Below the pieces are notes generated by a model that was not told the DNA's origin, did not search any database, and worked only from the letters and a program-made list of their open reading frames with translations. From a virus: a DNA stretch of 64,000 bases. The stretch's first letter is position 1. Each line of letters starts with the position of its first letter. Positions 27,292-64,000 of this stretch are shown piece by piece. The translations under genes and the position numbers were made by a program. Location of the stretch: positions 46,651 through 110,650 of IMG/VR virus record IMGVR_UViG_3300012347_000193, one strand, 5' to 3'.

Positions 27292-27301
27292 ATATTTTGC
27301 T

Positions 27302-31751: not shown

Positions 31752-32528
31752 ATGGACGATTTTAAAAAATATAAAAGATTCTTTGCATTCGGGTGTAGCT
31801 TCACAAACTATCATTGGCCAACATGGGCTGATATTATCGGTGCAGAGATTCCTGAATATTATAACTACGGAAACCCCGGTTCTGGTAACACATACATATT
31901 TTCAAGTATAGTAGAAGCAAACATTAGACACAAGTTTACTAAAGATGATTTGATTATTGTAATGTGGTCTAGCTTAGACCGTGAAGATAGATATATTGAC
32001 GATTGCTGGCAAGCAAAGGGCAGTGTGTTCCGTTCACTTGACAACTTCTACGACAAAGATTTTGTTATGAAATATGTAGATTCTAGGGGTTTCTTTATCA
32101 GAGATGCCACTATGATTTCAGCTACATGTGAGATGTTAAAAGAAATAGACTACCATTTTCTAAGCATGGTTCCAATTAATAACGCAGAGTTCAAGGAGAA
32201 AGAAAAGACGGAAGATTATCTACAAGTCTTTTTTGAAGAAGGCTTGACTCAAGTTAAACCCAGCGTTTGGGAAACTGTTTATAACTGTGACTGGACGCAA
32301 CATAGTATTGTGAAATATTTGGATAAAAAGGGTAAGGAACAGAATGATTTGCACCCTACTCCCATGCTGCACTTATTATATCTGCAACGCACATTTCCTA
32401 AAATTAATATAAAGTCAGAGACTGTAGAGTACTTAGAGGAACAAGAAAAAATAATATATTCTGAGAAGTACTTTGACCGCACTAAGTACTCTTTCACTAA
32501 TACAAGAAAAAAGCACAACAGAATATGA
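31752..32528 (+). CDS. SGNH/GDSL-like hydrolase or acyltransferase
   Basis: FGCSFT, G.GN and a C-terminal DLHP motif. Confidence 0.55.
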   Translation: MDDFKKYKRFFAFGCSFTNYHWPTWADIIGAEIPEYYNYGNPGSGNTYIFSSIVEANIRHKFTKDDLIIVMWSSLDREDRYIDDCWQAKGSVFRSLDNFYDKDFVMKYVDSRGFFIRDATMISATCEMLKEIDYHFLSMVPINNAEFKEKEKTEDYLQVFFEEGLTQVKPSVWETVYNCDWTQHSIVKYLDKKGKEQNDLHPTPMLHLLYLQRTFPKINIKSETVEYLEEQEKIIYSEKYFDRTKYSFTNTRKKHNRI

Positions 32529-32626
32529 TTGATTTTATTAAAAAGTTAATTGACCGTATTAAACGAGAATACAAGTATCGCAAACGGTTAAAAGAAATGA
32601 AAAAACGAGACCCGTTTATCTACTGA
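32525..32626 (+). CDS. 33-aa basic peptide MIDFIKKLIDRIKREYKYRKRLKEMKKRDPFIY, absent from the ORF track
   Basis: Exactly fills the gap: ATGA overlap upstream and 1 nt before the carbamoyltransferase ATG. Confidence 0.7.
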   Translation: MIDFIKKLIDRIKREYKYRKRLKEMKKRDPFIY

Positions 32627-32627
32627 T

Positions 32628-50293: not shown

Positions 50294-50797
50294 TTAGTCT
50301 TTAATGCAGATTATCGAGTCAACGTATTTCACACTAAAGTCAGCGCTGGAACTTGATGAAAAGTCAACTTTAAGAGTACCTGATAGTGTGTGAGTATGTC
50401 CAGTGCCGACACCGGCTGAACCAGACTGTCCAGTGCTAGGGGCTCCAAACCATCCAGTGATAGTACTAGGAGAAGTGGGACCCGCGGTGTACGGATATCC
50501 ACTGTTAGGAGAATTAATCGGGGTTCCAACAGAACCTGAGAAAGGATGCGTGTGTGCAGGTATATCCATCTGAGCCGAATTAACCGTAACTGTACTTGCG
50601 GATGCCGGATAAGTAACTGAACCTGCTGTCCTAGTTGATGTGAAAAAATCAGTAAAGTCTACTGTGCCACCAGATCCAAATGTACTAGTAGTTATAATCC
50701 TAAGAGTGTGGTTATATGAGTTACTGTCTTTAGTCCAACCAGTAGGCGAGGTTGTATGTTTAAAAAATGTTCTAGTTCCTGAAGGAAATGCTGCCAT
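50294..50797 (-). CDS. Short tail-collar-like fibre protein (paralogue 3)
   Basis: PSGT...F....PTGWTK, PAHTH, HTH and VKYVD. Confidence 0.7.
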   Translation of the reverse strand: MAAFPSGTRTFFKHTTSPTGWTKDSNSYNHTLRIITTSTFGSGGTVDFTDFFTSTRTAGSVTYPASASTVTVNSAQMDIPAHTHPFSGSVGTPINSPNSGYPYTAGPTSPSTITGWFGAPSTGQSGSAGVGTGHTHTLSGTLKVDFSSSSSADFSVKYVDSIICIKD

Positions 50798-50803
50798 AGT
50801 CGT

Positions 50804-51307
50804 TTAGTCCCTCGTAGCTATTATTGCATCAATGTATTTAACTGTCAAACCAACAGACAGAGTAACACCGGGCGTAGCACTAAATGCCAGTGGGTGTGTA
50901 TGTGCTGCTGGCGCAGGAGAGCCTGTGCTTCCTGAAGTAGTCCCAGTTGGAATTGGTGAGATGCCTGCTCTTCCTGACGCAGCACCCCCGGGATATTGTC
51001 TTAGAGAAGAAGACGTATATGAAATATATCCTGATGTGAATGTGTGAGTATGAGAAGCTAACTCGCCGACTGCCGGGTTAACTGATAGAGCGGATCCTGT
51101 TGGGTTAGTAATAGTACTAGCCCAAGTCCAGCTTTTTTGTGCTGCCTGTCCCACCGTTGTGGTCCACCCTGACGCAGATGTATTATCTGATCCTGCAATA
51201 TTTGTAACACGTAGCCCATAGTCATCATATGTTAAATCTCGTGTCCAACCAACTGGCGACCAAGATTGTATGAAAAGAGTTGTTGAACCTGAAGGAATTG
51301 AAGCCAT
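50804..51307 (-). CDS. Short tail-collar-like fibre protein (paralogue 2)
   Basis: IPSGS...F.Q...PVGWTR, SHTH, HTH and VKYIDAIIATRD. Confidence 0.7.
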   Translation of the reverse strand: MASIPSGSTTLFIQSWSPVGWTRDLTYDDYGLRVTNIAGSDNTSASGWTTTVGQAAQKSWTWASTITNPTGSALSVNPAVGELASHTHTFTSGYISYTSSSLRQYPGGAASGRAGISPIPTGTTSGSTGSPAPAAHTHPLAFSATPGVTLSVGLTVKYIDAIIATRD

Positions 51308-51311
51308 TTAA

Positions 51312-51905
51312 TTAATACCTCGTTGCCATGATTGCGTCAACATATTTAAGACTGAAATCTATGTCGGGGATAGTAACCGGAATAGACACACTACTTGCAG
51401 TGTGGCTGTGTCCCGATGAGCCTGATGCGATTCCAGTACTAACAGATGTTCCAGAAATTGGACTAGCATTACTGTAACTAGGTGCAAAAACGCTCGGAGT
51501 AGGTGGCGAGTTTGGTTGTTTAAAGTTCGCAAAGTATGTTGCAGCACCAGGGGGGTTACTTCTACCGCCCATCACGTGAGTATGTGCTGGCAACATTGCA
51601 GTCGTTACTGTAGTTGCACCCAATGAGACTGAGATTGGATAACTAGTTGAAACACTTGTTATCGGAGAAAACACTGAACTGAAGGGTGATCCAGTGCCTG
51701 TGGGCTTGAACAACCCGCTAGTTTTGTTAGTGATAGATAACGCAGAGTTATCCATTGAAGCGTTAGTTTCTTTAACCCAACCAACTGGCGCTGCTGCCTG
51801 CTGAAACAGCATAGTTGAGAATGAGTATTCAGGTTCATCTTTTGACGTAGATGTAACGCTAGTATAGCCAGCGAACCCACCGTTGACAGTATTAATACGT
51901 GACAT
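51312..51905 (-). CDS. Short tail-collar-like fibre protein (paralogue 1)
   Basis: FQQAAAPVGWVK, PAHTH, HSH and LKYVDAIMAT; start reassigned to MSRINT. Confidence 0.7.
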   Translation of the reverse strand: MSRINTVNGGFAGYTSVTSTSKDEPEYSFSTMLFQQAAAPVGWVKETNASMDNSALSITNKTSGLFKPTGTGSPFSSVFSPITSVSTSYPISVSLGATTVTTAMLPAHTHVMGGRSNPPGAATYFANFKQPNSPPTPSVFAPSYSNASPISGTSVSTGIASGSSGHSHTASSVSIPVTIPDIDFSLKYVDAIMATRY

Positions 51906-51910
51906 TTGAT

Positions 51911-53194
51911 TTATGAATAAGTTGAATAAGATCCGAGAACATGTGCCCAAGCAGCGCCTGTTCTGATTAAGCCAAACGAGAACACATCAACTGAATCAAC
52001 TTTGCCCGGGGGCGTTATACCACCAGGCCATTTAATAGGTAGAATAGTTCCGTCAATTTGTAAAACGTTTGGTATATAAGGAGTTGCACCTTGTACTACC
52101 ATTATAGTAACTATAATTGATTTAGCATCAGTAGTAGGCACGTTCTGAAAATTCACAGTCCAATTAGCACCTAGTGTGACACTAGGGTGATAAAAGGTTG
52201 CACCATTGTTCATGTTGTAATTAATAGTAGACGCTGCGACTGCTCCCATTGCATACACGGACTCTGTGGCTTGCGCGCAAGAGAACCATGAAGATATTGC
52301 TAAACTAGATAAAGTACCAACTGATGTAATGTTGGGTTGAGCATTAGTGTAAACTGTACCTGCAATCAAGCTGTTAGCCACTTGCCCTGTTATGTTAGCA
52401 CTGTTTAAATTAGTTAACGCACTACCGTTTCCGTAATGATTACCGGTTAAATTAGCACCGACTATATTTCCAGTAACTGCTAGACTAGTTAATGTACCAA
52501 CCGATGTAATACTAGGTTGTGCCGCAGTATATACCGTGCCTGCAACTAATGCGTTAGCTACTTGTCCGGTTACGTTAGCACCAGTGATAGAAGTTAGTAA
52601 TGCACCGTTCGCTGTAATAGGGTGACTAAATGTAAATGAGTTACTAATGTTATTATACAATAGATTAGCGGATGCACCGTTGATTGTAATGCCAGCGCCG
52701 TTGGCTGCTAAACTAGTGGTTGCATTGTTTGCTAGAACAACGTTCAAGTCGTTGATTGTCAATGTCGTTGAATTAAGAGTAGTAGTAGTTCCCGATACTG
52801 TTAAGTTACCAGAAACAGTTAGTGCGCCACTTATCAATGAATCACCGGCAACAGCTAAAGAACTTAACGTACCTACACTTGTTATGTTTGACTGGACGGC
52901 AGTGACAATATTACCGGTTAGATTTTTAACAACCACATTGTCAGTGGCTAATGTAGTTGTTGATTTGTTGAATGTTAGATTAGCGTTTGATCCAAATACG
53001 CCTGCATCATTAAACGCAATCTCTGTGTTGCTTCCTGTAGGATATGTAGTAAAGTCATATGCAACACCGTTAGCATGTAAAATGTTATCAGTTTTGACCG
53101 CATCCCCCGATACGTTTCCAGTGACGGCTAAATTAGCCATACTAAATTGAGCTGTAGCGGCGATGCCGGTGGGTTTTAAACGGGTTAGTGACAT
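51911..53194 (-). CDS. Tail fibre protein, paralogue of 45076-48432
   Basis: Shares ANALVAGTVYT.AQP.ITSVGTL repeats and the C-terminal 'NVPTT......T..V.QGAT.Y.P...QI.G....IKW' domain. Confidence 0.75.
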   Translation of the reverse strand: MSLTRLKPTGIAATAQFSMANLAVTGNVSGDAVKTDNILHANGVAYDFTTYPTGSNTEIAFNDAGVFGSNANLTFNKSTTTLATDNVVVKNLTGNIVTAVQSNITSVGTLSSLAVAGDSLISGALTVSGNLTVSGTTTTLNSTTLTINDLNVVLANNATTSLAANGAGITINGASANLLYNNISNSFTFSHPITANGALLTSITGANVTGQVANALVAGTVYTAAQPSITSVGTLTSLAVTGNIVGANLTGNHYGNGSALTNLNSANITGQVANSLIAGTVYTNAQPNITSVGTLSSLAISSWFSCAQATESVYAMGAVAASTINYNMNNGATFYHPSVTLGANWTVNFQNVPTTDAKSIIVTIMVVQGATPYIPNVLQIDGTILPIKWPGGITPPGKVDSVDVFSFGLIRTGAAWAHVLGSYSTYS

Positions 53195-53264
53195 TTATTG
53201 TTCCTGAAGTTGAATACTCTAGTATTTAGCTTAAAAACTTGAGAGAACTACCCAAAATAATTGT

Positions 53265-54041
53265 TTATCGCGGTGTGATGTTAGATTTTGGTATAATATT
53301 CATATCAAAAATCCAGCTATCTAATAACTCATTAGATATGTAATCGAAAGGTATCCAGCAATATCCGTTTAAGCCCCAGTCAGATCCGAAACTGTTTCTA
53401 GCTAGTAATATTCTCTTTTTCAAGTTATACCCTACAAAACACATAGCATGAGCACCTATGGGAGATTGTGTCTCGTATGCTTGTGGCATTCTAATGGTTG
53501 TATAATTATCGTATAAATCTTCAAACGATTCGTAAACCTTCATACTAAACACTACTGGATACTCTTTGTTAATAGCATCTAGGATATCATTTAAGTCTGA
53601 AATTCTATAGTAATTCTTGATAGTTCTATTTTTTGCATCTTCATAGCAGGGAATACTAGGAGTCATGGCAAATGACTCTACTAGATAGGGCCAAGCAGCT
53701 TCGCTACAAATACCAAATTTTTGCACAGCCTTGACTGCATCACGTAGATATGCCCCTCCATCTTGATTGATAGTGTTTTCTAGCGCACGTGCATTGTAGT
53801 AGACGAACAATCTACTAAGGTCCGTAAACTTATCAGGTGCTTCCTTATTCATCAGTAACTCATATGCGCCTACGACTGCCTGGCCTGTACAACTGCCCAA
53901 GTGGCCTTGATCCTCAATGGGACTAGCCCATTGTCTCAAGTCAACATACTCACGTAGAGGTAGTCTGGCAAAGGAGTAAGGCAAGTCTCTCCAATCACTT
54001 GGGTCTTGCCTTACATTATATTTTGCTTTGAGCAGTAGCAT
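53265..54041 (-). CDS. Papain-family (C1A) cysteine protease
   Basis: VDLR..., DQG.LGSC (Gln/Cys), SRLFVYYN, GAHAM..VGY (His) and RNSFG..WG..GY (Asn). Confidence 0.93.
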   Translation of the reverse strand: MLLLKAKYNVRQDPSDWRDLPYSFARLPLREYVDLRQWASPIEDQGHLGSCTGQAVVGAYELLMNKEAPDKFTDLSRLFVYYNARALENTINQDGGAYLRDAVKAVQKFGICSEAAWPYLVESFAMTPSIPCYEDAKNRTIKNYYRISDLNDILDAINKEYPVVFSMKVYESFEDLYDNYTTIRMPQAYETQSPIGAHAMCFVGYNLKKRILLARNSFGSDWGLNGYCWIPFDYISNELLDSWIFDMNIIPKSNITPR

Positions 54042-54331
54042 TAATCTTCAGCTTCTATCTTAACAATTTCAGGATAGTCTTCCATTTCAAGTACGTCACC
54101 TTCTTCTGATAAATCTACTAAATTTTCAGCAATAATATGTAGTTCAACATCTTGCCATGCGTCTTCTCTCGCCCATTCTAATAAACGAATCATCAAAGGT
54201 ACATTGAGTTTAATAACGTCTTCTTCATTTTCGTTCGGCTTAGTTAAAGTTCTTTTACGCATTGAAGCCGGCATTACGGCCGGGTCAGCAAAGTGTTCTT
54301 CGACAATTTTATGTGTGATTTTTTTATACAT
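54041..54331 (-). CDS. 96-aa acidic protein with N-terminal MYKKITHKIVEEHF tag
   Basis: Start reassigned to MYKKITH (AGGA RBS); core 'VPLMIRLLEWAREDA...LH'. Confidence 0.75.
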   Translation of the reverse strand: MYKKITHKIVEEHFADPAVMPASMRKRTLTKPNENEEDVIKLNVPLMIRLLEWAREDAWQDVELHIIAENLVDLSEEGDVLEMEDYPEIVKIEAED

Positions 54332-54342
54332 GGTATATCCTA

Positions 54343-54744
54343 TTATAGAATCAACCATTGTGTACCGTTGTACACAAATGTTAGTGAACCATACGGTGCA
54401 TTGATAACGGCAGTTGCGGCACCATCAATAGTACCAGCTGTTGGTGTGATAGTGATAGGAGTTGCAGGTGCAGCCAATCCTAATCCATCTTTGATTGTGA
54501 ATTCTTGACCTAGTACGCCAGCTGGCAATGTTACTGCCACAGCAACCGGACCCGGTACGGCTACATCAATTACGTTATCAGTTGCGGCTACTACTGTGAT
54601 AGGAGTCGCAACTGCGGTTCTGATATCAACTAATGCAGCACCGCTGGCACTGATTGTAATTGTATTAGCACCTGTACCTGTTGTTGGTGCTATCGTGATA
54701 CCTGTTCCTGCTAGGATTGAGGTTGGGTTATTTGTATATGACAT
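54343..54744 (-). CDS. Small beta-rich protein (family A)
   Basis: Domain 'VTLP.G..G....IKD..G.A....IT......IDG......IN..YGS....Y.GT.W'; strong RBS. Confidence 0.75.
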   Translation of the reverse strand: MSYTNNPTSILAGTGITIAPTTGTGANTITISASGAALVDIRTAVATPITVVAATDNVIDVAVPGPVAVAVTLPAGVLGQEFTIKDGLGLAAPATPITITPTAGTIDGAATAVINAPYGSLTFVYNGTQWLIL

Positions 54745-54777
54745 TTTATTTTTCCTTTAGTTAAATGTTTTGAAAGA

Positions 54778-55086
54778 TTATGATATAGTCTTCCAGTTTG
54801 TGCCATCATATACAACTTGTATATGACTGTATCCACCATTAAGAATAGCGAAGGAAACACCGTCTATGTTTTTTCCTCCGGCACTCGTAATAGTAATGGG
54901 ATTTGTTTTAGCCTGACCAGAATAGTCTTTGATGTATAATGCTCGTCTATTGTTATCGTCACCGTTGCCAGTTGCCGGTAATATAACAGATGCAGGCCCA
55001 GGTATGTCAACCATGATTACTTCGTCGGTATTTGCGACAGTATACGGTGTTGTTGTAACGATTCTTACTCTATATTCGATTGCCAT
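54778..55086 (-). CDS. Small beta-rich protein (family A)
   Basis: Same domain (YIKDYSG.A..NPITI...IDG...YDGTNW); AGGAG RBS. Confidence 0.75.
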   Translation of the reverse strand: MAIEYRVRIVTTTPYTVANTDEVIMVDIPGPASVILPATGNGDDNNRRALYIKDYSGQAKTNPITITSAGGKNIDGVSFAILNGGYSHIQVVYDGTNWKTIS

Positions 55087-55095
55087 GTTATCTCC

Positions 55096-55650
55096 TTAAC
55101 TGATTCTAGTTAGTGTGACCTTGACACTATTGCCAGTTGGTCTTGTTGGGGTTACTGCGGCTGGTAAAGCTGTGAGTGCAGCGGTGATATCAGCACTTGA
55201 CCAGCACAGTTGAATGAATCCCCCTGCTGGAATGTTCAAGGTAAAGTTACCCGATGTAAAAGTCAGTGCTAACGTGTTGACTAGTTCAATGTCTTGTCTT
55301 GAACCCACTACGTCTACTCCGTTTAGTCTAAGCCATATGCTAATGTCAGTAGTTCCACCAGAAGTCTTGGACAAAATAAGAGTGAACAGCTTTGTGTATG
55401 TGCCAGCATTTACTACAGTAATGTCTGTGCCACCTACCACACTAACGCCATTGGCAGGTCCAGTGACGTTGAATGTGGCAATATTAGTAGTACTGGCTAC
55501 TGGATTAGGCTGTGTAGTGCTGTCAGTAAAGAAACCGTAGTTCAACAAGCCAGTACTACCAGATATCACACCGTCAGTGACACTGATGCCAGCGCCTACT
55601 TTTACGATTCCGTAGTCTGTAGTTGATGATAGAGGTGCTTTGTATGACAT
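55096..55650 (-). CDS. C1q/TNF-like (BclA C-terminal-like) beta-sandwich protein
   Basis: 'YGFF.....Q.NP.....N..TFN....G....GGT.ITV...G.Y...F...IWLR.NG'; paralogue of 55660-56214. Confidence 0.55.
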   Translation of the reverse strand: MSYKAPLSSTTDYGIVKVGAGISVTDGVISGSTGLLNYGFFTDSTTQPNPVASTTNIATFNVTGPANGVSVVGGTDITVVNAGTYTKLFTLILSKTSGGTTDISIWLRLNGVDVVGSRQDIELVNTLALTFTSGNFTLNIPAGGFIQLCWSSADITAALTALPAAVTPTRPTGNSVKVTLTRIS

Positions 55651-55659
55651 TTTCTTTCC

Positions 55660-56214
55660 TTATAATTGTATGATAGTGCATCTTACACTAGGGGTTACCG
55701 GTCTCACCGGAGCTACCTGTGCTGGTACTGTTAATAAACGCATGGCAATGTCTGCACTGGACCATGCTATTTGAATCGTGTCGCCGGCTGTTAATGCCAA
55801 AGTAAAATTCCAACTTGCCACCAATACACCAACTGCACCAATGACAACACTCTGCGAATTTGTATCAGTATAGTTTACACCGTTGCGTTTAATCCAGAAA
55901 TCTATTAAGTCATCACCTGCATCAGTTTTATCTACCTGTGCAGTAAATTGTAAATTGTAGTTGGCAGTTTTACTAACTGTTATATTTGTTCCACCGACTA
56001 GCGTGATACCAACATTGACAGCGGCGTTGTTAAATGTAACAATATTTTGTGTGTTGGCCACAGGATTGGTCTGTGTAACTGTGCTGTAGAAATACGCTTG
56101 GTCCAACAGTCCTATAGGCACAACATTGAGCACTCCGTTGGTCACAGTTAGATTTGTACCCGGTGTTGTTATACCTGGAGTAGAGTTAGTAGCCAATGGT
56201 TCTTTATAGCTCAA
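55660..56214 (-). CDS. C1q/TNF-like (BclA C-terminal-like) beta-sandwich protein
   Basis: TTG start, MSYKxPL N-terminus shared with its neighbour, and 'YNLQF.AQ...FWIKRNG...L.LTAGD.IQIAW'. Confidence 0.55.
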   Translation of the reverse strand: MSYKEPLATNSTPGITTPGTNLTVTNGVLNVVPIGLLDQAYFYSTVTQTNPVANTQNIVTFNNAAVNVGITLVGGTNITVSKTANYNLQFTAQVDKTDAGDDLIDFWIKRNGVNYTDTNSQSVVIGAVGVLVASWNFTLALTAGDTIQIAWSSADIAMRLLTVPAQVAPVRPVTPSVRCTIIQL

Positions 56215-56215
56215 G

Positions 56216-57373
56216 TTACACCTGTTGTAAAGTTAATGTTCTTGTATTGACAGTTAGTGTACCTGTTATAGCAGTTGCCCTAGCAGTAACAATATCACCT
56301 ATCACTAATGCTACAGGTCCTGTTGTTGTTATACTAGCTGATGTAATTGTTGTTGGACCTGATACTGTGACTAACGTGCCTGGAATCAATACACCATTCT
56401 TGTAAATGCCAAAGTTAGCACTAACTGGTCCCGCAGCTAAACTTCCTGGAATGTATACGTTGCCGTTTACAATTGTAGGTAGACCGTAGCCAGTAATCAA
56501 TCCTAAGTTGGTTCCAATATTACCATTAATTACACTTGTCCCTGTATTTGCTACCGCACCGCTGTTAGTGAACAGTGCAAAGTTTTCTAGTACACCTAAT
56601 ATGATAGGAGTCGTAGTAGCGCCAGGCTCGGTCACGATGTTTGTATCAGTCGTCACTGCCCCGAGTGTAGATAATAATCTGCCATTTAATATACCACCAT
56701 TGCCAATGCCAGCAGCACCGGCTACTGCTAGTGCTGTGCCTGCAAATACTGTGTTAGCACCCAGTGCTGTCGCACCTTGGCTTACCCAGAATACGTTTTC
56801 TGCACTGGCACCATTGGTCAATACTACTTGACTTGCGGCTACACTGGTCAATGCGCCAGCGACACGGACAACAAACAATGCGTCAGGATCGCCGCCGCCG
56901 TCTAGTGTCAAGATACCTTGAATAGCAGCAGGTGTAACAACATCGTACACTCCTGGTAGTAATGTTTCCCCGTTACCAAACACGGCACCGTGTAGTACTC
57001 CACCTGGTAATGCTGCTAACTGTGCAGCAAGTGCAGTGGTTGCGGCTGCGGCTGCAGCCGTGATATCAATAAGGTCCCCGACAATACCGTAGTCTGCACC
57101 AAATGTTGCTACAAAGTTTCCATTGATTGGACTAACTAATGTCATGCCGGTAAGTGGTGTTAGACCAGTGCCAGCAAGAATTGTTTGCGGAGTTGTGCTA
57201 GTAACTGTCAACCGTAGTAGATTCGTACCAATCATGGAGTTGGTATTAACTATGCCACCTCTACGGTTGTTGCTTGCAAGTTGTGTTGCTCGTACCGCCG
57301 GTACTTGTTTACGTAAGTTGATTCCAGGACGTAATGGTCCTTGGGGAAAGTTTGCTGAAAATATACCTAACAT
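56216..57373 (-). CDS. Ice-binding-like (DUF3494) domain protein, 385 aa
   Basis: 'TLLPGVY...LTLDGGGDPDALFV...VVLTNGASAENVFW....ATLG....F.GT...GRLLS..GAVT'; start reassigned to MLGIFS (AAGGAG RBS). Confidence 0.85.
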   Translation of the reverse strand: MLGIFSANFPQGPLRPGINLRKQVPAVRATQLASNNRRGGIVNTNSMIGTNLLRLTVTSTTPQTILAGTGLTPLTGMTLVSPINGNFVATFGADYGIVGDLIDITAAAAAATTALAAQLAALPGGVLHGAVFGNGETLLPGVYDVVTPAAIQGILTLDGGGDPDALFVVRVAGALTSVAASQVVLTNGASAENVFWVSQGATALGANTVFAGTALAVAGAAGIGNGGILNGRLLSTLGAVTTDTNIVTEPGATTTPIILGVLENFALFTNSGAVANTGTSVINGNIGTNLGLITGYGLPTIVNGNVYIPGSLAAGPVSANFGIYKNGVLIPGTLVTVSGPTTITSASITTTGPVALVIGDIVTARATAITGTLTVNTRTLTLQQV

Positions 57374-57410
57374 TTTAGTGCTCCTTGTTTCTAAAAATTT
57401 GTCATTGTTG

Positions 57411-57896
57411 TTACACAATATTCCATTCTGTGCCGTCGAATAATACTGTAATACTGCCAAAATTTGTGTTAATAGTAGCAGTTGCGCTACCGTCAATTAA
57501 TTGTCCGCCTGTACCTTGTACTGTGATTGGATTAGTAGCAGCCAAGCCGCCACAATCCTTAATAATATAAACTGTTCCAAGTATGCCCGTAGGTAAAGTA
57601 ATAGTAACTGGTCCTACAGTTAATACACACAGGAAGTAATCAGTGGGTAATGCTGTGTATGTTGCGGTAACAACATCTGTTACTGCTACTGGACTTGGGT
57701 TACCGGCAGGCCCGGGTGGTCCAGGAGGTCCAGGCGGTCCCGCAGGACCAGTGCCCCCATTAGTAATAAACACATCGTTACCGGCTCCTCCAAATTGTGA
57801 TGCAACCGGATACAGTGCTCTCCTTACTAGTGGTCTTCTGATAATAGGACGGCGGCGTATTTGTGCAGTTAGTATTCCTAAATTGTTGAACATCAT
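57411..57896 (-). CDS. Collagen-like protein with family-A C-terminal domain
   Basis: Arg-rich N-terminus, GPAGPPGPPGPPGPAG, then 'ITLP.G..G..YIIKD...NPIT...IDG...FDGTEW'. Confidence 0.8.
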   Translation of the reverse strand: MMFNNLGILTAQIRRRPIIRRPLVRRALYPVASQFGGAGNDVFITNGGTGPAGPPGPPGPPGPAGNPSPVAVTDVVTATYTALPTDYFLCVLTVGPVTITLPTGILGTVYIIKDCGGLAATNPITVQGTGGQLIDGSATATINTNFGSITVLFDGTEWNIV

Positions 57897-58591
57897 TATG
57901 ACTTATCCTTCTCTTTTGCTAACCAGCCACTAAGTACAGTACGCAATAGTGAATGTTTTACCGGTGCAGGTTCTTCTTCTACTACGGGTTCTTGTGTTAC
58001 TGCAGGTTCTTCTTCTACTACGGGTTCTTGTGTTACTGCAGGTTCTTCTACTACTACAGGCTCTGCTATTGGAGCTGAGTTATCCAAGTTAATAGGTTCA
58101 TGAATGATAACAAAATCCCCACCTGATTGTACTACTCTAGTAATCGTAGGTACTGAAGGAGGCATCTCAGTTACACCACCGGTGTCAATCATACTTGTTT
58201 GTACAGGTAAATTGTATGCTGCCTGCAATTGCTCTGTTATTGAAGGTGTTATTGCATCCTGATATGACATAGGTGTTTCATCCTCAAGTATTACTTGAGG
58301 CGCAGTTGGTTCTGATATCTCTACGGGAGTGTTAGACTCACTTGCTGCAGGTTGATTTGATTTATTATAAAGCTCTAATGCTTTAGCAACAACCTCTTGC
58401 TCTGTTGGGAACAACTTTGCAGTAGGATATGGAATTAATACACCCTTAGTCTTCCATGCTATTTGACTTTCACGCAGCCATTGTTGATGGTGCGTCCCTC
58501 TCAATGCAAGATAATCTTGTATTAAGAGTTGCTTTGCAACTTGAAGTAATTCTTCTCGTTTTTTAAATTCATCTGAATTAATCTGGCTCAT
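57896..58591 (-). CDS. Hypothetical protein with helical N-terminal domain and P/E/V-rich tail
   Basis: 'REELLQ.AK..L...FPTEQEVV.KA..LY' followed by tandem EEEPAVTQEPVV. Confidence 0.7.
   Translation of the reverse strand: MSQINSDEFKKREELLQVAKQLLIQDYLALRGTHHQQWLRESQIAWKTKGVLIPYPTAKLFPTEQEVVAKALELYNKSNQPAASESNTPVEISEPTAPQVILEDETPMSYQDAITPSITEQLQAAYNLPVQTSMIDTGGVTEMPPSVPTITRVVQSGGDFVIIHEPINLDNSAPIAEPVVVEEPAVTQEPVVEEEPAVTQEPVVEEEPAPVKHSLLRTVLSGWLAKEKDKS
57965..58049. repeat. 36-bp tandem repeat (about 2.4 copies)
   Basis: TGCAGGTTCTTCTTCTACTACGGGTTCTTGTGTTAC at 57965 and 58001, with a partial copy at 58037. Confidence 0.9.
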
Positions 58592-58821
58592 AATGCTTTA
58601 CCTGCTAAATGTAATACCAATGCAAACGCACCACTCAACCCACCTGTAACAAACGATAATGCTGCTGCAAAAATCATTCGCTTATGTACCTTGTTCTGTT
58701 CAATAATTTCGTTTAGTTTATTCTCTAACGACTTATGGCGCTGGGCACACAGTGCTACGTGAGCCTCAAGGTTAGTAGATTCAATTGGCTTATCACCGGA
58801 AGAAACAGTAATCATTGACAT
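58588..58821 (-). CDS. Small coiled-coil protein with C-terminal transmembrane helix
   Basis: LEAHVALCAQRH..LE.KL followed by a hydrophobic C-terminus. Confidence 0.7.
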   Translation of the reverse strand: MSMITVSSGDKPIESTNLEAHVALCAQRHKSLENKLNEIIEQNKVHKRMIFAAALSFVTGGLSGAFALVLHLAGKAL

Positions 58822-58824
58822 ATA

Positions 58825-59529
58825 TTACTCGATAAATGATAGTGGGTACTGAGCAATAACTCCGCGACTTAACACATCTGCTAAACTTGGATAACCTTTG
58901 TTAACATGATTTGCAATACCGGTAATAACTAGTTTATTGATACCATCAATACTTTCTGCGTTCATAATAACATTGTTTGTGATACGTGCGTTGATGTTAT
59001 CAGTCCACAACTGCGTTAATGCGTGTAGCATTTCTTGTATCAACGATACAGGATACTGTCCTGGATTTAGCTTATTGAACAATTCAGCAAGTTGAGTAGT
59101 CTGTTCTGCCCACTTAATTTGCAAAGGCACAATGTCACCTTTTTTCTTTGACACTTCTACTACTTCGACTCCGGTTTCAAATATAGCATTCAACATTTTC
59201 CCGATATCACTACCGGCGCGAATGCCATAGTATGGTATAAAATAATCACCAATCATTGTTGCAGATTTAGTTAAACGTTCTTCTACACTAGGAGTTGTTG
59301 ATAAGTCAGCAACAGAGCTAACAGCATAGTTAACTAGACCCAAAGAATATTTCGTCCATAGGGTCCTGCTATCCATCCTGAAGACTAATGTTTTTTCATT
59401 CACTACAACAGAAGGTAGTGGACTTAGCGTAGCTTTAGTTGGTACCATACTGGCTTTTACTTCCGTAGGTAGTGCTAGTGGACTATCAAAGTGTTCTTCG
59501 ACTATATCGTGTGTTATCTTTTTATACAT
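58825..59529 (-). CDS. All-helical bundle protein with MYKKITHDIVEEHF tag
   Basis: Paralogue of 59531-60346 (W......S....; YG...; LA......N; AD..S.G.I). Confidence 0.75.
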   Translation of the reverse strand: MYKKITHDIVEEHFDSPLALPTEVKASMVPTKATLSPLPSVVVNEKTLVFRMDSRTLWTKYSLGLVNYAVSSVADLSTTPSVEERLTKSATMIGDYFIPYYGIRAGSDIGKMLNAIFETGVEVVEVSKKKGDIVPLQIKWAEQTTQLAELFNKLNPGQYPVSLIQEMLHALTQLWTDNINARITNNVIMNAESIDGINKLVITGIANHVNKGYPSLADVLSRGVIAQYPLSFIE

Positions 59530-59530
59530 T

Positions 59531-60346
59531 TTAACAACCCATATCGTCTAATGCATCGTACATTTCATTTTCTATTTTCTTTGCTGTGTAGTCAATTATT
59601 CCCGATGAGAACACATCAGCAAAACTAGGATTACCATTTTCTTGCTTTACTACTAAAATGTTGTATGCTCCGTCGGCAGCAATGTCCCCTGCTTCCCATT
59701 CTCTTTTCATGCGTGAGATTGCTTGCATGATATATAAATTTTCTACTTGAGTGAGGATATCTACTACTGCGGTAGAAGGCCACAATGCGTTTGCGCTTTC
59801 TAAGAAGTCACCTAGTGATTTTGTAGCATCAGCAAGAATCTTCATAGTGTCAGTTGTGTCTTTGTCATTCTTAACTTGTACAATCACGTCGGCTAATGCC
59901 AACGCAACATTAGTTAACAATGTTTTAAATTGTGTAGCTGCTTCTGTACCATAGCACTCTGAAACAATGCTAGTGATATTATCAATGTCAGCAACTAGTT
60001 TAGTTTTCAATGATTCTGTATCTGTACTACCTGATGTGATACTAACTACAAGACTGCGAATTCTCCAAGCTAATTGAGACCAGTAACTTGTACTATCTTT
60101 TTCGATTTGACTTAAAGATGAATCGTCATATACTTTGATCCAACTTTTACTTTTTGCATCATATCTGTTATTTGATTGTGATTTAGATTTTGCGGTATGA
60201 TATACAATCTCACCGGTGACAGGGTCTACGACTCCTCCCATGTTTTTAGCAGTCTTTGATTTTCTTTCAATCTTTGCTTTTAATTCTGCGGCGATAGGGT
60301 GCGCAAAGTGTTCTTCTACGATGTGGTGTGTGATTTTTTTGTACAT
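59531..60346 (-). CDS. All-helical bundle protein with MYKKITHHIVEEHF tag
   Basis: Paralogue of 58825-59529; AAGGA RBS. Confidence 0.75.
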   Translation of the reverse strand: MYKKITHHIVEEHFAHPIAAELKAKIERKSKTAKNMGGVVDPVTGEIVYHTAKSKSQSNNRYDAKSKSWIKVYDDSSLSQIEKDSTSYWSQLAWRIRSLVVSITSGSTDTESLKTKLVADIDNITSIVSECYGTEAATQFKTLLTNVALALADVIVQVKNDKDTTDTMKILADATKSLGDFLESANALWPSTAVVDILTQVENLYIMQAISRMKREWEAGDIAADGAYNILVVKQENGNPSFADVFSSGIIDYTAKKIENEMYDALDDMGC

Positions 60347-60355
60347 GATTGTTCC

Positions 60356-60562
60356 TTACCAAACTACTGTTGGTGTTGATGTTTGATTGACACCGAACAT
60401 ATTGCCGGTGTTTACTAAATTTTGATTGGAGATTGCACTGCCAATGACATTTGAACTAGAGTAGTTGCCATAGCCATAGGGAATGCCATAACTATAGTTT
60501 GGATAGGCATATGGAAAGAAGTAGCTGCTTCTGTAGTTGGGGTATAAGTAACCATAAAACAT
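60356..60562 (-). CDS. 68-aa Tyr/Pro/Gly-rich protein with shared C-terminal motif
   Basis: YPNY repeats followed by SAISNQNLVNTG...QTSTP; strong RBS AAAGGAAAATAAAAAATG. Confidence 0.75.
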   Translation of the reverse strand: MFYGYLYPNYRSSYFFPYAYPNYSYGIPYGYGNYSSSNVIGSAISNQNLVNTGNMFGVNQTSTPTVVW

Positions 60563-60577
60563 TTTTTATTTTCCTTT

Positions 60578-60611
60578 AAAAAACGTGAGCCAACCTTTTG
60601 AGTCGGCCCAC
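60578..60611 (-). terminator. Intrinsic terminator or attenuator inside the module
   Basis: Minus strand: GTGGGCCGAC-TCAAAAG-GTTGGCTCAC-GTTTTTT. Confidence 0.7.
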
Positions 60612-60638
60612 TATCTTAACGTTTAGTCGTAAGTTGGA

Positions 60639-60836
60639 TTAATAGTAACCATAGCCGCCTAAGCCGCCATACCCACCGTAACCACCATACAAACCATATC
60701 CGGGATACCCGAAGCCATAGCCATAGAAAGGTGACGCTATACCGCCCATATAGGGATAACCTATACCAGCGCCTAGATAACCTCTACCAAGACCAAGACC
60801 ACCGTAGCCCATATAACCATAATTGGATCTAAACAT
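60639..60836 (-). CDS. 65-aa Gly/Tyr-rich protein
   Basis: AAGGAGG RBS; (GY/GG/YG)n composition with almost no charged residues. Confidence 0.8.
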   Translation of the reverse strand: MFRSNYGYMGYGGLGLGRGYLGAGIGYPYMGGIASPFYGYGFGYPGYGLYGGYGGYGGLGGYGYY

Positions 60837-60858
60837 ATAGATACCTCCTTATAGTTAA

Positions 60859-61413
60859 TTAATTGATGCTAGTTGGTGTTGAAGTTTGTGTTGTACCAGT
60901 CATTGTTCCAGTATTAACTAGACCTTGACTAGAGATAGCACTGTTCAACGAGTTCAAAGCACTGTTTGTACTTGCAGATTGGAATGCAGAAACTGCACCG
61001 CCGTAAGCAAGACCTAAACCACCGTACTGAACACCTAAGCCACTGTATGCAACGTTGGTATTAATCAATGCTGTGTTCAAGTTTTGTGTATTCAATGCGT
61101 TGACTAGACCGCGTGTCAATTCGCCTTGTTCCATTACTGCACGTGTTGTGGCAGCTGCGGTTTGAGCGACTACTGCATCTGTGCGGGCAGCAGCCAACAT
61201 TGTTTGCAATGTACCGTTAGATACTTCTTGCTTCAAGTCAGCCAATGCTGATGCATCGTGTAATGCAACTTGCATAGCGCGGTTGTTGATGTCGTTTGTT
61301 TGTGCGACTTGTAGTTTGTAGTTTTCGAATACACTATCAGAAACTTTTTCTCTTAAACTTGCAGTTTCACGTGAAAGATGAAAGAACGGGTCAGTTGTTA
61401 AAAAATCAGCCAT
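60859..61413 (-). CDS. 184-aa Ala/Thr/Asn-rich helical protein (paralogue B)
   Basis: Aligns end to end with 61602-62162; strong RBS. Confidence 0.85.
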   Translation of the reverse strand: MADFLTTDPFFHLSRETASLREKVSDSVFENYKLQVAQTNDINNRAMQVALHDASALADLKQEVSNGTLQTMLAAARTDAVVAQTAAATTRAVMEQGELTRGLVNALNTQNLNTALINTNVAYSGLGVQYGGLGLAYGGAVSAFQSASTNSALNSLNSAISSQGLVNTGTMTGTTQTSTPTSIN

Positions 61414-61457
61414 TTTATTTTTTCCTTATAATAAGCCGGGACATTACATCCCTGAAA

Positions 61458-61557
61458 TGCTGAACGATAGAACCTATTTCTATCACAGCATATAATTACT
61501 TAAACGAAAAAATGACTGTTTCCATATGCTACAAGTATTGCATGTACTTCAGTACGG
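61458..61557 (-). promoter_or_regulatory. Conserved upstream element, copy 1 (operator, TAAGTA, 5' hairpin)
   Basis: Same motifs and spacing as 62185-62283. Confidence 0.6.
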
Positions 61558-61558
61558 T

Positions 61559-61583
61559 AAAAAACCTGCCGAAGCAGGTTTTT
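61559..61583. terminator. Bidirectional-type intrinsic terminator after paralogue A
   Basis: AAAAAACCTGC-CGAA-GCAGGTTTTT (TTCG loop on the minus strand). Confidence 0.85.
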
Positions 61584-61601
61584 ATATTGCAAGTTTCAAT
61601 A

Positions 61602-62162
61602 TTAATTGATACTTTGTGGATTACTAGTTTGCGTAGTGTTTGCAATGTTGCCCGTATTTATCAAGCGTTGATTTGAGATAGCACTGTCTAAAGCATTAAT
61701 AGCACTATTTGTTGATGCGATTTGTGTTGCATTTACTGCACCACTATACGCAAGACCCATACCACCGTACAATGTGTTCAAGCCACTGTATGCGACATTG
61801 GTGTTAATCAAACCTGTATTCAAGTTTTGTGTATTCAATGCGTTAACTAGACCACGTGTCATCTCACCGTTCTCCATTACTGCACGAGTAGTTTCAGCAG
61901 CAGTTCTGCCGATTACTGCATCAGTACGAGCGGCAGCTAACATTGTTTCTAATGTGCCTTTGCTTACAGCGCCTTTTAAATCAGCTAATGCTGATGTGTT
62001 GCGCAATGCTACTTGCATACCGCGATTGTTAATGTCGTTTGTTTGTGCGACTTGTAGTTTGTAGTTTTCGAAAATACTATCAGATACTTTTTCTCTTAGA
62101 CTTGCGTTTTCACGTGAAAGATGAAAGAAAGGATCGGTTGCTAGTGTTGAAATTTCAGCCAT
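61602..62162 (-). CDS. 186-aa Ala/Thr/Asn-rich helical protein (paralogue A)
   Basis: TDPFFHLSRE.ASLREKVSDS.FENYKLQVAQTNDINNR is shared with paralogue B. Confidence 0.85.
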   Translation of the reverse strand: MAEISTLATDPFFHLSRENASLREKVSDSIFENYKLQVAQTNDINNRGMQVALRNTSALADLKGAVSKGTLETMLAAARTDAVIGRTAAETTRAVMENGEMTRGLVNALNTQNLNTGLINTNVAYSGLNTLYGGMGLAYSGAVNATQIASTNSAINALDSAISNQRLINTGNIANTTQTSNPQSIN

Positions 62163-62184
62163 TTTATTTTTCCTTAAGGTTTTG

Positions 62185-62283
62185 ATACTTCATATAGAAC
62201 CCATTTCTATTGTAGTATATTATTACTTAAAAGAAAAACACTTTCAAAATTACGTAGCATTTACTAGCCTGTACTTGAGAACT
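62185..62283 (-). promoter_or_regulatory. Conserved upstream element, copy 2
   Basis: Same motifs and spacing as 61458-61557. Confidence 0.6.
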
Positions 62284-62296
62284 ACGGCTAAAGGAA

Positions 62297-62321
62297 ATCC
62301 TATATGAGACCCATATAGGAT
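62297..62321 (-). terminator. Hairpin directly after the luxR-like gene
   Basis: ATCCTATATG-AGACC-CATATAGGAT. Confidence 0.55.
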
Positions 62322-62324
62322 ATT

Positions 62325-63137
62325 TTATTTTGAGAACATTGCCAGTTGAGTGCGATTCTTTACATTAAACTTTTCGAGCAGCTTGCCTACATGTAGTTTC
62401 ACAGTGCTTTCAGTGATGTTTAGAATTTTTGCAATTGTTTTATTGCTTGCACCACGCTCTTGAATGAGCTTGAGAATCTCACCTTGCCTGGGAGTCAATG
62501 TGATTTCACTGTTATGTTTGATTTTAGTAGGGCTACCGGGCAAGTTATCTAAGATATGCTTCGGCCAGTAAGGAATGCTATTAGATAGTGCATTGATGCT
62601 TTTATTAACGTCATCAATTGAGTAGTCCACACCATCTAGCAGAACTCCTTGGCATTGAGTTCTTTGTAACTCTTTGATAAGACTTCTGGGTGTATCTTTC
62701 TTGATAACAATGCCTATCCTTAGGTCATCTTTACATGGCATAAATTTTGTAATAGTTGTCAATGCATCCATAAACTCTATCGCGGAACTTCCCGGAGGTC
62801 TAGCTAACATGTCAACGTGAATTGCCAACAAGGTCACTTTGCTTGCACTCTCTTGCAGTGCATTGGCAAGTTCAGCCCATGTACTAGGCATTGTCCACGT
62901 AAAATTAAAGTCTTCCTTAATTCTACCCGTACATTTGGGAGTACTACTATGGTCTTCTCTAAAGTAAATAACGTTTGGTTTGAGTTCTATGTTCATATCA
63001 GTACTTACAGAGTCATCTACTTCCGCATCAAATACAACAGTATAGGCTGTACTACAGTCTGGCAGTAATGAAGTTGACACAGAAAAAAATGTGTCTGGTA
63101 GTGTGCGGAAATTAATCTTCTCGGATGAGTTTATCAT
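62325..63137 (-). CDS. LuxR/NarL-family HTH transcriptional regulator with degenerate receiver-like domain
   Basis: C-terminal LTPRQ.EIL.LI..G.SNK.IA..L.ITESTVK.HV..LL.KF.V.NRTQL. Confidence 0.9.
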   Translation of the reverse strand: MINSSEKINFRTLPDTFFSVSTSLLPDCSTAYTVVFDAEVDDSVSTDMNIELKPNVIYFREDHSSTPKCTGRIKEDFNFTWTMPSTWAELANALQESASKVTLLAIHVDMLARPPGSSAIEFMDALTTITKFMPCKDDLRIGIVIKKDTPRSLIKELQRTQCQGVLLDGVDYSIDDVNKSINALSNSIPYWPKHILDNLPGSPTKIKHNSEITLTPRQGEILKLIQERGASNKTIAKILNITESTVKLHVGKLLEKFNVKNRTQLAMFSK

Positions 63138-63310
63138 TTTTGTAACTTTCTTTCTATTATTGTAAGATACCTTCGAGTTGCCGTCTGTTCGGTATCGAAC
63201 ATACTATTAGTTATTCGTTATCATGCCTATAAAAAAAATAAATGTCAATTTGACATGGATACCTTAGTAGTAAATTAGTTCTAGAACTAAAGTACTACCT
63301 TTAAAATCAG

Positions 63311-63339
63311 TTGACAATAAATCACTTTCCTGCTATACT
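63311..63339 (+). promoter_or_regulatory. Sigma70-type promoter
   Basis: TTGACA-17 nt-TATACT, with a TG extension. Confidence 0.85.
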
Positions 63340-63344
63340 ACGTT

Positions 63345-63809
63345 ATGGAAATCGAAATTGTAACTCGTTCAGTCAAGCGCAAGTTTGTACTTGAAAATGC
63401 AACCAAGTTCTTGCGTAAAGAACTAAAATTGGAGAAAAGCAAATATGCGTTAACAGTTTACAATGCACCCGGATTGCGCAAGCGTGAAGGGTTTAATGGT
63501 ATCTGCTCAAAAGTAGGAGACCGCGAAATCGTCATTATCGTTGACGGTGGTTTGGGAGAGTGTGACCTCATTCAGTGTATTGCACACGAAATGGTTCACG
63601 CCAAACAAATCGCAAAAGGTCAACTACAACTCGACACCAAAAATCGTCAAACATGGTTGGGTCAACGGGTGTCCAAAGAGTATCACGAACGTCCTTGGGA
63701 ACAAGAAGCGTTCGCACGTGAAAGAATCTTGGCTTATCGTGCAATGTCATTCTGTCAAAAAGAAATGACAAAACGGGCAAACAAAGTTCTAAAACAGTTT
63801 GACAAATAA
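63345..63809 (+). CDS. Zn metallopeptidase-like protein (HExxH)
   Basis: IAHEMVHAKQ...Y..RPWE.EA. Confidence 0.8.
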   Translation: MEIEIVTRSVKRKFVLENATKFLRKELKLEKSKYALTVYNAPGLRKREGFNGICSKVGDREIVIIVDGGLGECDLIQCIAHEMVHAKQIAKGQLQLDTKNRQTWLGQRVSKEYHERPWEQEAFARERILAYRAMSFCQKEMTKRANKVLKQFDK

Positions 63810-63870: not shown

Positions 63871-64000
63871 ATGTCAAAATCTAGTGCTGTTAGCGACAAT
63901 CACACAATCACTGCTACGCAGGCTGCTCGTTCACTCAAGCAGGCAATGAAAGCAAAACGTCCCGTATTCTTGTGGGGCCCTCCCGGTATCGGTAAGTCTG
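63871..64000 (+). CDS. AAA+ ATPase (MoxR-like), 3'-truncated by the window edge
   Basis: AGGAG RBS; MSKSSAVSDNHT...RPVFLWGPPGIGKS (Walker A). Confidence 0.8.
   Translation, partial: MSKSSAVSDNHTITATQAARSLKQAMKAKRPVFLWGPPGIGKS

Follow-up and report, generated by a model that had tools for sequence, protein, structure and literature searches.

A conserved, probable late-gene island of fibre-type, rod and tagged proteins in an uncultured huge T4-type phage lineage

Analyzing a 64,000-nucleotide (nt) stretch of viral DNA (the window), which forms the final 64 kb of the 110,650-bp IMG/VR record IMGVR_UViG_3300012347_000193, we found that a block of 17 genes at positions 53265–63137, all on the minus strand, is a conserved, probable late-gene island of an uncultured freshwater lineage of huge T4-type myoviruses. 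The block forms a genuine unit, conserved and with regulation of its own, and its recognizable parts are, as judged from sequence, phage fibre and baseplate-adaptor modules rather than exosporium proteins. At a probability of roughly 0.45, we propose that it encodes regulated late accessory parts of the virion: short fibres together with an assembly of rod and Gly/Tyr-rich proteins, and tagged proteins that would be packaged like the internal proteins of T4 or docked to the particle. A preliminary description of this DNA had listed the 17 co-oriented open reading frames (ORFs), all of which we found in place, and had read them as an assembly akin to a spore coat or exosporium; what it observed is confirmed, and its interpretation is partly supported. 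The separately promoted, linked unit that it postulated is borne out by conserved gene order and by promoter elements of the block's own, and the products do look like highly expressed, self-associating structural proteins, with strong ribosome sites, portable terminal peptides and a long predicted helix. Parts of a virion appendage explain more of the genes, however, than a coat or an occlusion body does.

Genome context and recurrence of the block

The 110-kb record encodes a T4-type major capsid protein (gp23; Pfam Gp23, E 7e-98), a portal protein (gp20; E 1e-102) and a gp21-type prohead protease (Peptidase_S77, E 1e-28). Because CheckV rates the 110,650-bp record as 32% complete, the whole genome would measure about 345 kb. 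The closest capsid proteins of cultured phages are those of Vibrio phage 2.275.O (68%) and PA5oct (66%), followed by those of a 469-kb Sinorhizobium phage and of Escherichia coli jumbo phages of about 350 kb; we take the Sinorhizobium and E. coli jumbo phages to belong with Atu_ph07 and RaK2. Its capsid-protein relatives and T4-type genes therefore place the genome in the jumbo group of the T4 superfamily, where, by sequence, its nearest neighbours are PA5oct, RaK2 and Atu_ph07. Some members of this group have hairy tails or hairy capsids (PMC5259590, PMC13282480). The sole match of any protein of the block in a bacterial genome is that of rod-protein homologues on two short contigs (L050 and L051; GTDB CAZXGO010000088.1 and CAZXGO010000223.1) of an uncultured Chitinophagales metagenome-assembled genome (MAG); these contigs are probably phage-derived and give a weak hint of a Bacteroidota host.

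Genes of the block lie 0–33 nt apart or overlap, no product carries a secretion signal, and the block adjoins fibre genes on the same strand. Related loci were collected from IMG/VR with two proteins of the block and then analyzed by tblastn of the block's proteins. At least eight further huge-phage contigs of IMG/VR, among them a distant one of 233 kb, share the gene order of the block, and the contigs bearing members of the rod or tag families are up to 337–367 kb long. The synteny that the preliminary description had suggested looking for is thus present, with the same order in L002–L010, L012 and L052. In L002–L010 this order runs from a regulator through the rod protein or proteins, a Gly/Tyr-rich or Tyr/Pro-rich micro-protein, the tagged bundle or bundles, a membrane-anchored protein and a Pro/Glu/Val-rich (PEV) protein to a collagen-gp10 protein, a C1q-like protein, gp10-like proteins, a tagged protein and a papain-family (C1A) protease.

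Some related loci hold part of this set. In L012, the rods, which are 40–46% identical to those studied here, are accompanied by micro-proteins, fibres, the PEV protein and a bundle that lacks the tag; neither tag, protease nor regulator is present in this locus, protease and regulator are also absent from its 97.7-kb fragment, and the membrane protein is missing as well. The 233-kb contig (G005; locus L052) has the order regulator, rod-like protein, gp10-like fibres, tagged bundle and protease, with two copies of the regulator and four gp10-like proteins, and is devoid of C1q-like genes and of the membrane anchor. Its 254-aa (amino acid) rod-like protein, which bears the C-terminal peptide described below, was missed by direct search and found by hhalign (probability 88.6%, E 2.7e-6). 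G003, a 90-kb phage that is 85% complete, contains the collagen, C1q-like and gp10-like genes only, beside a fibre gene, while the protease is absent from L008/G001.

Proteins encoded by the block

Three proteins of the block contain a domain that is, on profile evidence, homologous to the N-terminal adaptor domain of T4 gp10, for which Pfam PF07880 and PDB 2FL8/5HX2 served as the reference for the gp9/gp10 N-terminal domain. These are a 161-aa short fibre protein (57411..57896), in which a basic N-terminus and seven G-X-Y triplets precede the gp10-like C-terminal domain; a 102-aa protein (54778..55086), which is little more than the adaptor domain; and a 133-aa protein (54343..54744), which combines a fibre-type N-terminal peptide with the domain and shares 72–86% identity with its counterparts in L004, L010, L011 and L013. 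A profile (A4), for which the C-terminal part of the 161-aa protein was aligned with the two small beta proteins, was run against PDB sequences and matched residues 70–144 of T4 gp10 (E 1.8e-5), the N-terminal domains of tailspikes and, more weakly, the 'baseplate wedge tail fiber connector' 9f4a (E 0.066). Taken singly, the sequence of the 102-aa protein reached E 1.1e-4 against PF07880 (T4_gp9_10_N), under the gathering cut-off. The domain also matched a PHROG baseplate family (E 8.6e-7), the 161-aa protein matched PHROG baseplate and tail-fibre families, and tblastn of the domain found Atu_ph07 (adjoining a tail-fibre gene), SCTP-2 and a Haloarcula virus 'T4 gp9/gp10-like baseplate protein'. 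The profile match to gp10 and the tblastn matches to baseplate proteins contradict the earlier statement that none of these genes is a canonical T4-type virion gene.

Two further proteins of 184 aa each resemble C1q/TNF-like knobs: knob A (55660..56214; TTG start), which begins with the fibre-type peptide M-S-Y-K-x-P-L, and knob B (55096..55650), which is 40% identical to it. By sequence, they resemble the distal domains of structural proteins of small phages and, weakly, ExsF/BxpB. In tblastn they match the C-termini of larger proteins of Acinetobacter and Limnohabitans small phages, some of these matches being annotated by their depositors as C1q- or cerebellin-like, and in phiAC-1 a protein with such a C-terminus is encoded directly after the capsid gene. 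The few PDB matches of the C1q-like profile (A2) include ExsF/BxpB, at E 0.03–0.46. C1q-type domains are reportedly discussed as receptor-binding domains of the fibres of contractile injection systems. Depending on the locus, M-S-Y-K-x-P-L stands on a C1q-like or on a gp10-like head, and the first 30 residues of knob B recur joined to gp10-like domains in L008 and L012; such apparent shuffling of N-terminal peptides between heads is as in phage fibres. We read this part of the block as several short fibre-type proteins composed of standard phage modules, namely the gp10-like adaptor domain, C1q/TNF-like knobs and a collagen stalk of modest length. The (GPP)n collagen protein of the preliminary description does contain a G-X-Y run, but with its seven triplets it misses the Pfam Collagen threshold; nor does the proposed likeness to BclA, with collagen and C1q-like heads, hold, since the G-X-Y run is fused to a gp10-like domain and the C1q-like proteins contain no collagen.

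The two rod proteins, A (186 aa; 61602..62162) and B (184 aa; 60859..61413), are paralogues of 78% identity (alignment A1), each with a predicted long helix, a Gly/Tyr-rich tail and a shared C-terminal peptide. AlphaFold2, given an alignment of 22 sequences, predicts for rod B a single helix over residues 9–136 with a predicted local distance difference test (pLDDT) above 90 and a length of about 19 nm, followed by a disordered Gly/Tyr-rich tail (residues 137–184) that ends in the shared peptide; as the model is a single long helix, a fold search with it would be pointless. The family comprises 773 metagenome proteins in just 27 clusters at 50% identity, all of them unnamed, and identity among the 120 best matches listed is 77–93%. 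No relatives of the rods were found in Pfam, PDB sequences, PHROG or cultured phages, and a protein-atlas search returned the family's own unnamed phage clusters only. Downstream of the rods lie two micro-proteins, one of 65 aa consisting of 40% Gly and 25% Tyr (60639..60836; ribosome site AAGGAGG), with compositional counterparts in L003, L008 and L012, and one of 68 aa rich in Tyr, Pro and Asn (60356..60562; 18% Tyr). The latter ends in the same C-terminal peptide as the rods, N-T-G...Q-T-S-x-P, which within the 110-kb record occurs only on these three proteins, in agreement with the shared termini reported earlier.

The shared N-terminal peptide reported earlier, hereafter the tag, is likewise confined within the record to three proteins: a helical-bundle protein of 271 aa (59531..60346; tag residues 1–14; a member of alignment A3), another of 234 aa (58825..59529) and an acidic protein of 96 aa with an isoelectric point (pI) of 4.5 (54041..54331), whose gene is translationally coupled to that of the protease. 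For the acidic protein we corrected the start to an internal ATG at 54331, which is preferred because the protein then begins with the tag. We assessed conservation on 120 homologues from a profile search, aligned by a loose pattern: in 87 of them the tag reads M-Y-K-K-I-x-H-x-I-x-E-E-H-[FY], with H7, I9, E11, E12 and H13 invariant and positions 8 and 10 free, while the remaining 33 differ in the region of the pattern, mainly at position 6, with I9-x-E11 and the invariant residues kept in the 15 that were listed. The tag family numbers 438 metagenome proteins, all unnamed, and the tag is attached as well to unrelated bodies 55–176 aa in length, some acidic, others His-rich or poly-Thr; it heads, for instance, a 62-aa His-rich peptide (L045:8092-8130, minus strand) and a 55-aa poly-Thr peptide (L028:945-1112, plus strand).

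In T4, internal proteins carry a 10-residue capsid-targeting sequence, MKTYQEFIAE, which ends in I-A-E, requires residues 8 and 10 for processing and is removed by gp21, which cuts after L/I-X-E (PMC8442874, PMC9026906). The 271-aa protein contains one [LI]-x-E site in total, and this site lies inside the tag; the four such sites of the capsid protein all fall within its residues 1–43, and 19 are present in the scaffold, a distribution in these two proteins that would fit a gp21-type specificity. The evidence on the tag is thus compatible with a capsid-targeting role, with putative cleavage and packaging, although its alternating conserved face of H, I, E and H suits a docking beta-strand equally well.

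For the 234-aa protein, AlphaFold2 predicts a bundle over residues 40–234 and a disordered tag region (residues 1–31), with a pLDDT of 86 and a predicted template-modelling (TM) score of 0.79. The bundle could not be assigned to a known PDB fold: the best Foldseek match had E 0.12, a wide VIA-align comparison gave Z of at most 8.9, which is the background for helical bundles, a profile search of PDB sequences was not significant, and the protein atlas yielded unnamed clusters only. In a library of viral models, the bundle matched its own family, a 209-aa Bodo saltans virus 'glycosyl transferase' (TM score 0.72/0.80, root-mean-square deviation 2.6, E 1.5e-5) and a Tupanvirus ORFan.

The preliminary description had named a LuxR-type helix-turn-helix (HTH) protein, a DUF3494 protein and a C1A protease, and Pfam confirmed each of these. 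The protease (258 aa; 53265..54041), which closes the block in L002–L006, L010 and L052, matches Peptidase_C1 at E 1.9e-15 (58 bits; cut-off 20.7), and its active-site Gln, Cys, His and Asn are readable in D-Q-G, G-S-C-T-G, G-A-H-A and R-N-S-F-G; its 258-aa sequence includes neither a prodomain nor a signal peptide. Between the PEV and bundle genes, a 77-aa protein (58588..58821) has a coiled-coil N-terminus and a C-terminal membrane anchor; we rejected its assignment to XhlA (PF10779), which one of five family members matches (E 0.0014, 19.2 bits; cut-off 34.7). The PEV protein itself (231 aa; 57896..58591) consists of a conserved N-terminal domain of 100 aa, which is kept in all related loci, a Pro/Glu/Val-rich linker and an amphipathic C-terminus. 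The DUF3494/ice-binding-like beta-solenoid protein (56216..57373; Pfam E 3.6e-30, 105.6 bits, cut-off 28.7) is 385 aa long with 57373 as its most likely start, which we prefer to an overlapping TTG at 57496, and against NCBIfam IBP_CFB it reaches E 3.2e-11, far under the cut-off. No real homologue exists in the related loci, the sole match being a 30-residue stretch in L052 (E 0.009). By this comparison the gene was inserted locally, is confined to this genome and does not belong to the conserved module, and the cold- or ice-adaptation coat suggested earlier loses its basis.

Regulator and promoter elements

The first gene of the block (62325..63137) encodes a 270-aa regulator with a LuxR/NarL/CsgD-type HTH (Pfam GerE PF00196, E 1.2e-16, residues 213–268), which also matches the NarL HTH of the PDB (E 3.5e-10) and, in part, CsgD and NarL families of NCBIfam. 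Its N-terminal 200 residues match no family, searches of Pfam, NCBIfam and PDB sequences giving nothing N-terminal of residue 164, and neither a receiver nor an autoinducer-binding domain was found in the same three collections. A homologue heads the module in L002–L009 and L052. L052 encodes a second LuxR-type HTH (4102-5190, plus strand), fused to a 300-aa N-terminal part that starts with a signal-peptide-like hydrophobic stretch.

The divergent sigma-70 promoter that had been placed at the right edge of the block is present in the form of consensus matches in the intergenic region 63138..63344, between the regulator gene and a 154-aa ORF: TTGACA-17-TATACT on the plus strand (63311-63339; 11/12) and TTGACA-17-CATGAT on the minus strand (63248-63220; 10/12). 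The 154-aa ORF (63345-63809, plus strand) contains the HExxH-type motif H-E-M-V-H and matches no family.

Each rod gene is preceded by a control region of its own. That of rod gene A (62163..62283) comprises a GTAC element (62271-62275), a TAAGTA (62224-62229), a hairpin (62194-62210) and a strong ribosome site, and that of rod gene B (61414..61556) a GTAC element (61544-61548), a TAAGTA (61497-61502) and a hairpin (61467-61483; -12.4 kcal/mol, z -3.55). The GTAC element and TAAGTA are 46 nt apart at both genes, and the same layout precedes the rod genes of L003, L004 and L008 (46–55 nt) and of G005 (46 nt); in L002, TAAGTA and the hairpin are kept and no AGTAC core was scored. A perfect palindrome, ATAGAA-N5-TTCTAT, stands before both rod genes and was considered as a LuxR operator. 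We rejected this assignment and read the palindrome as a 5' stem-loop in the RNA, because in other loci its sequence changes while the hairpin stays in place; it always folds, with z of -2.7 or lower in five of nine leaders. The near-identical strong ribosome sites noted earlier were also found, AAGGAAAAATAAA-ATG preceding both rod genes and the genes of the 68-aa and 133-aa proteins.

The fragment that holds L012 is devoid of a LuxR gene, and upstream of its rod genes stands TATAAATA, a canonical late promoter of T4. Because this fragment drives its rods from TATAAATA, the rod genes would be late genes, and the comparison suggests a weakened late-type promoter on which the LuxR-type protein acts as an activator, as far as co-variation among a few genomes can indicate. 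The full TATAAATA occurs just three times in 110 kb and never inside the island, and the stretch from 60562 to 53265 is likewise free of internal late-promoter motifs. Between the two micro-protein genes lies a hairpin resembling an intrinsic terminator (60585..60611, minus strand; 11 pairs, six of them G-C, then GTTTTTT). The TAAATA promoter reported at the left edge was recovered as the late-promoter-like motif CTAAATAC (53222..53229, minus strand), which starts the next unit with a 427-aa fibre gene. Motifs of the form (C/T)TAAATAC occur at 53229, 50268 and 48460 (minus strand), 25–40 nt before three genes of the fibre cluster, including those at 50241 and 48432, and appear to correspond, in this phage, to the late promoter of T4.

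Other genes of the window were surveyed as well. Among the fibre genes, a 389-aa protein (48490-49659, minus strand) has a C-terminal 2-oxoglutarate-Fe(II) oxygenase domain of the prolyl-hydroxylase type (PF13640, E 7.5e-18); we rejected it as a member of the module, since it is absent within 10 kb of the module in all related loci. Three paralogous proteins of 167, 167 and 212 aa (50294-51950, minus strand), flanked by two fibre genes with similar C-terminal domains, end in K-Y-[VI]-D-[AS]-I-[IM] plus a few variable residues, contain H-T-H-[TPV] motifs and have no Pfam match. On the plus strand, a single ORF of 5315 aa spans 2473-18420, and the ORF before it, of 776–817 aa, runs off the start of the window. 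Genes for sugar modification follow on the same strand at 21758-36244 (radical SAM, dTDP-4-dehydrorhamnose 3,5-epimerase-like, nucleotide-sugar epimerase and Nol-like carbamoyltransferase), a run that includes a split pair matching PHROG 34187, and a Walker-A (G-P-P-G-I-G-K-S) protein starts at 63871-63999 (plus strand) and runs off the window.

Proposed roles and comparison with known systems

If the block does supply late accessory virion parts, its two rod proteins and the Gly/Tyr-rich and Tyr/Pro-rich micro-proteins might co-assemble into a filament or matrix. Binding of the LuxR/CsgD-type protein to the GTAC element, about 46 nt upstream of the TAAGTA late-type element, would activate the rod promoters, and the 5' hairpin and strong ribosome site would raise rod output. 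The tag could act as a targeting strand like the capsid-targeting sequence of T4, bringing the acidic helical-bundle proteins and other small tagged proteins into the prohead, where the gp21-type protease would cut after I-x-E; alternatively, it may serve as a docking plug. The papain-like protease might trim or release tagged components.

Several points weigh against this proposal. In a fibre cassette one would not usually expect a regulator of its own, a protein with a membrane anchor, a PEVK-like protein or a papain-like protease acting in the cytoplasm. The rod and Gly/Tyr-rich proteins have no relatives among known virion proteins, and neither the rod nor the tag family occurs in a cultured phage. 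Conservation of the tag extends beyond the proposed cut (E-H-F-D-H-P), and the tagged proteins are acidic (pI 4.5–5.8), whereas the internal proteins of T4 are basic. That the shared C-terminal peptide docks rods and micro-proteins to a common partner, perhaps the gp10-like sockets, is conjecture.

We regard as a tentative and clearly less probable alternative that three independent cassettes, one for a short fibre, one for T4-style internal proteins with their protease and one for the rod and Gly/Tyr-rich proteins, are joined by no more than the usual synteny of late genes, the last of them being under LuxR control and having a separate, possibly host-directed role. Sub-sets do occur apart, as fibres only in G003, as a distant rod only, without C1q-like genes or anchor, in G005, without tag, protease and regulator in L012 and without protease in L008/G001; moreover, the special promoter is found at the rod genes only, and a terminator follows the Gly/Tyr gene. 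However, the order regulator, rod, (bundle), fibres, bundle and protease is kept at 25–45% protein identity, including in G005, and the close or overlapping spacing of the genes, without an internal late-promoter motif from 60562 to 53265, likewise argues for a single unit.

An exosporium- or coat-like layer or matrix, surrounding the particles or lying in the infected cell, appears unlikely. It would be built of rods, Gly/Tyr cross-links, a collagen/C1q nap and tagged cargo, matured or dissolved by the protease, and, because no product has a secretion signal, would have to be assembled in the cytoplasm. The composition of the two micro-proteins is suggestive of such a layer, as are the strong conservation of the rods, their very strong expression signals, the CsgD-like regulator at the head of the block and the appearance of ExsF and BxpB among the few PDB matches of the C1q-like profile. 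Yet these exosporium matches lack significance, no protein of the block has the architecture of BclA, the gp10-like domains indicate ordinary attachment to a baseplate or fibre, DUF3494 is not conserved, and the sole hint of a host, the Chitinophagales MAG, points to Bacteroidota and not to a spore former; we also know of no precedent for coated or occluded phage particles. Far less probable still is a module in which the membrane protein, the PEVK-like protein and the papain-like peptidase act on the host envelope or in lysis at a time set by the LuxR-type protein. The 77-aa protein has an XhlA-like layout of coiled coil and membrane anchor, and one tblastn match of the protease coincides with an endolysin-annotated gene of Alicyclobacillus phage MMB025, but the XhlA match is under the cut-off and limited to one of five family members, the membrane protein is absent in G005 and L012, C1A peptidases are not, to our knowledge, cell-wall hydrolases, and rods, fibres and tags would be left unexplained.

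A bolder extension of the virion-part proposal, which we consider doubtful, is that the block specifies a new structural material, a programmable 'hair' or nap: hetero-oligomeric coiled-coil rods, cross-linked or embedded by high-Gly/Tyr micro-proteins and anchored in gp10-type sockets, would carry collagen and C1q knobs and exchangeable cargo loaded through the tag, with a CsgD-like activator in control and the papain-like protease trimming the product.

Huge phages hold many conserved genes of unassigned role, and the island, to judge from the number of rod- and tag-family proteins in metagenomes, is widespread. It joins the rod, tagged-bundle and PEV families, for none of which known relatives were found, with fibre adaptors, two portable peptides and a dedicated regulator-promoter pair; the three families are new at the family level, as are the two peptides and the regulator-promoter pair. 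Were the tag to act like the capsid-targeting sequence of T4, the principle would extend to the PA5oct/RaK2 supergroup, and the tag would provide a natural means to load very large capsids with proteins, inside or on the surface. Filaments of rods and Gly/Tyr-rich proteins, if real, would represent a new kind of virion material, and the link between regulator and promoter is a testable case of a phage activator layered over T4-type late transcription.

Of the systems known to us, the N-terminal domain of T4 gp10 and the docking domains of branched tailspikes share a homologous domain with three island proteins, and branched tailspike systems similarly combine small modules with exchangeable ends; the tailspike entries matched in the PDB are presumably of the CBA120/G7C type. 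In the island, however, the domain stands nearly alone (102–161 aa) or after a seven-triplet collagen, enzymatic tailspike bodies are lacking, and attachment to the baseplate is putative. With the exosporium nap of Bacillus, in which BclA sits on ExsFA/BxpB, the island has in common a short collagen stretch, C1q/TNF-like domains of faint ExsF/BxpB similarity, N-terminal targeting peptides and a protease nearby. It differs in that the seven collagen triplets and the C1q-like domain are on separate proteins, in that the matches are not significant and in its T4-type phage setting, with a host that is probably no spore former.

The T4 internal proteins IPI–IPIII resemble the tagged proteins in bearing, on otherwise unrelated bodies, an N-terminal peptide of 10–11 residues that ends in I-x-E, and in being encoded at a variable multi-gene locus of a phage with a gp21-type protease. 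Unlike them, the tagged proteins have acidic bodies, their genes occur in linkage with fibre genes and a papain-like protease gene, and the tag has no sequence similarity to the T4 peptide and is conserved past the putative cut. Keratin filaments and the high-Gly/Tyr keratin-associated proteins, with which the island has no homology, and whose counterpart here, a filament of some oligomeric state, is hypothetical, offer by general knowledge a parallel to the arrangement of the proposed material, in that paralogous long-helix rods stand beside Gly/Tyr-rich proteins of 65–68 aa. The regulator, finally, differs from CsgD, VpsT and NarL in its N-terminal 200 residues, which match no known domain, and its putative GTAC-element site is deduced from the comparison of loci alone; it shares with these regulators the type of C-terminal HTH and, like csgD for curli, its gene lies directly upstream of genes for fibrous products.

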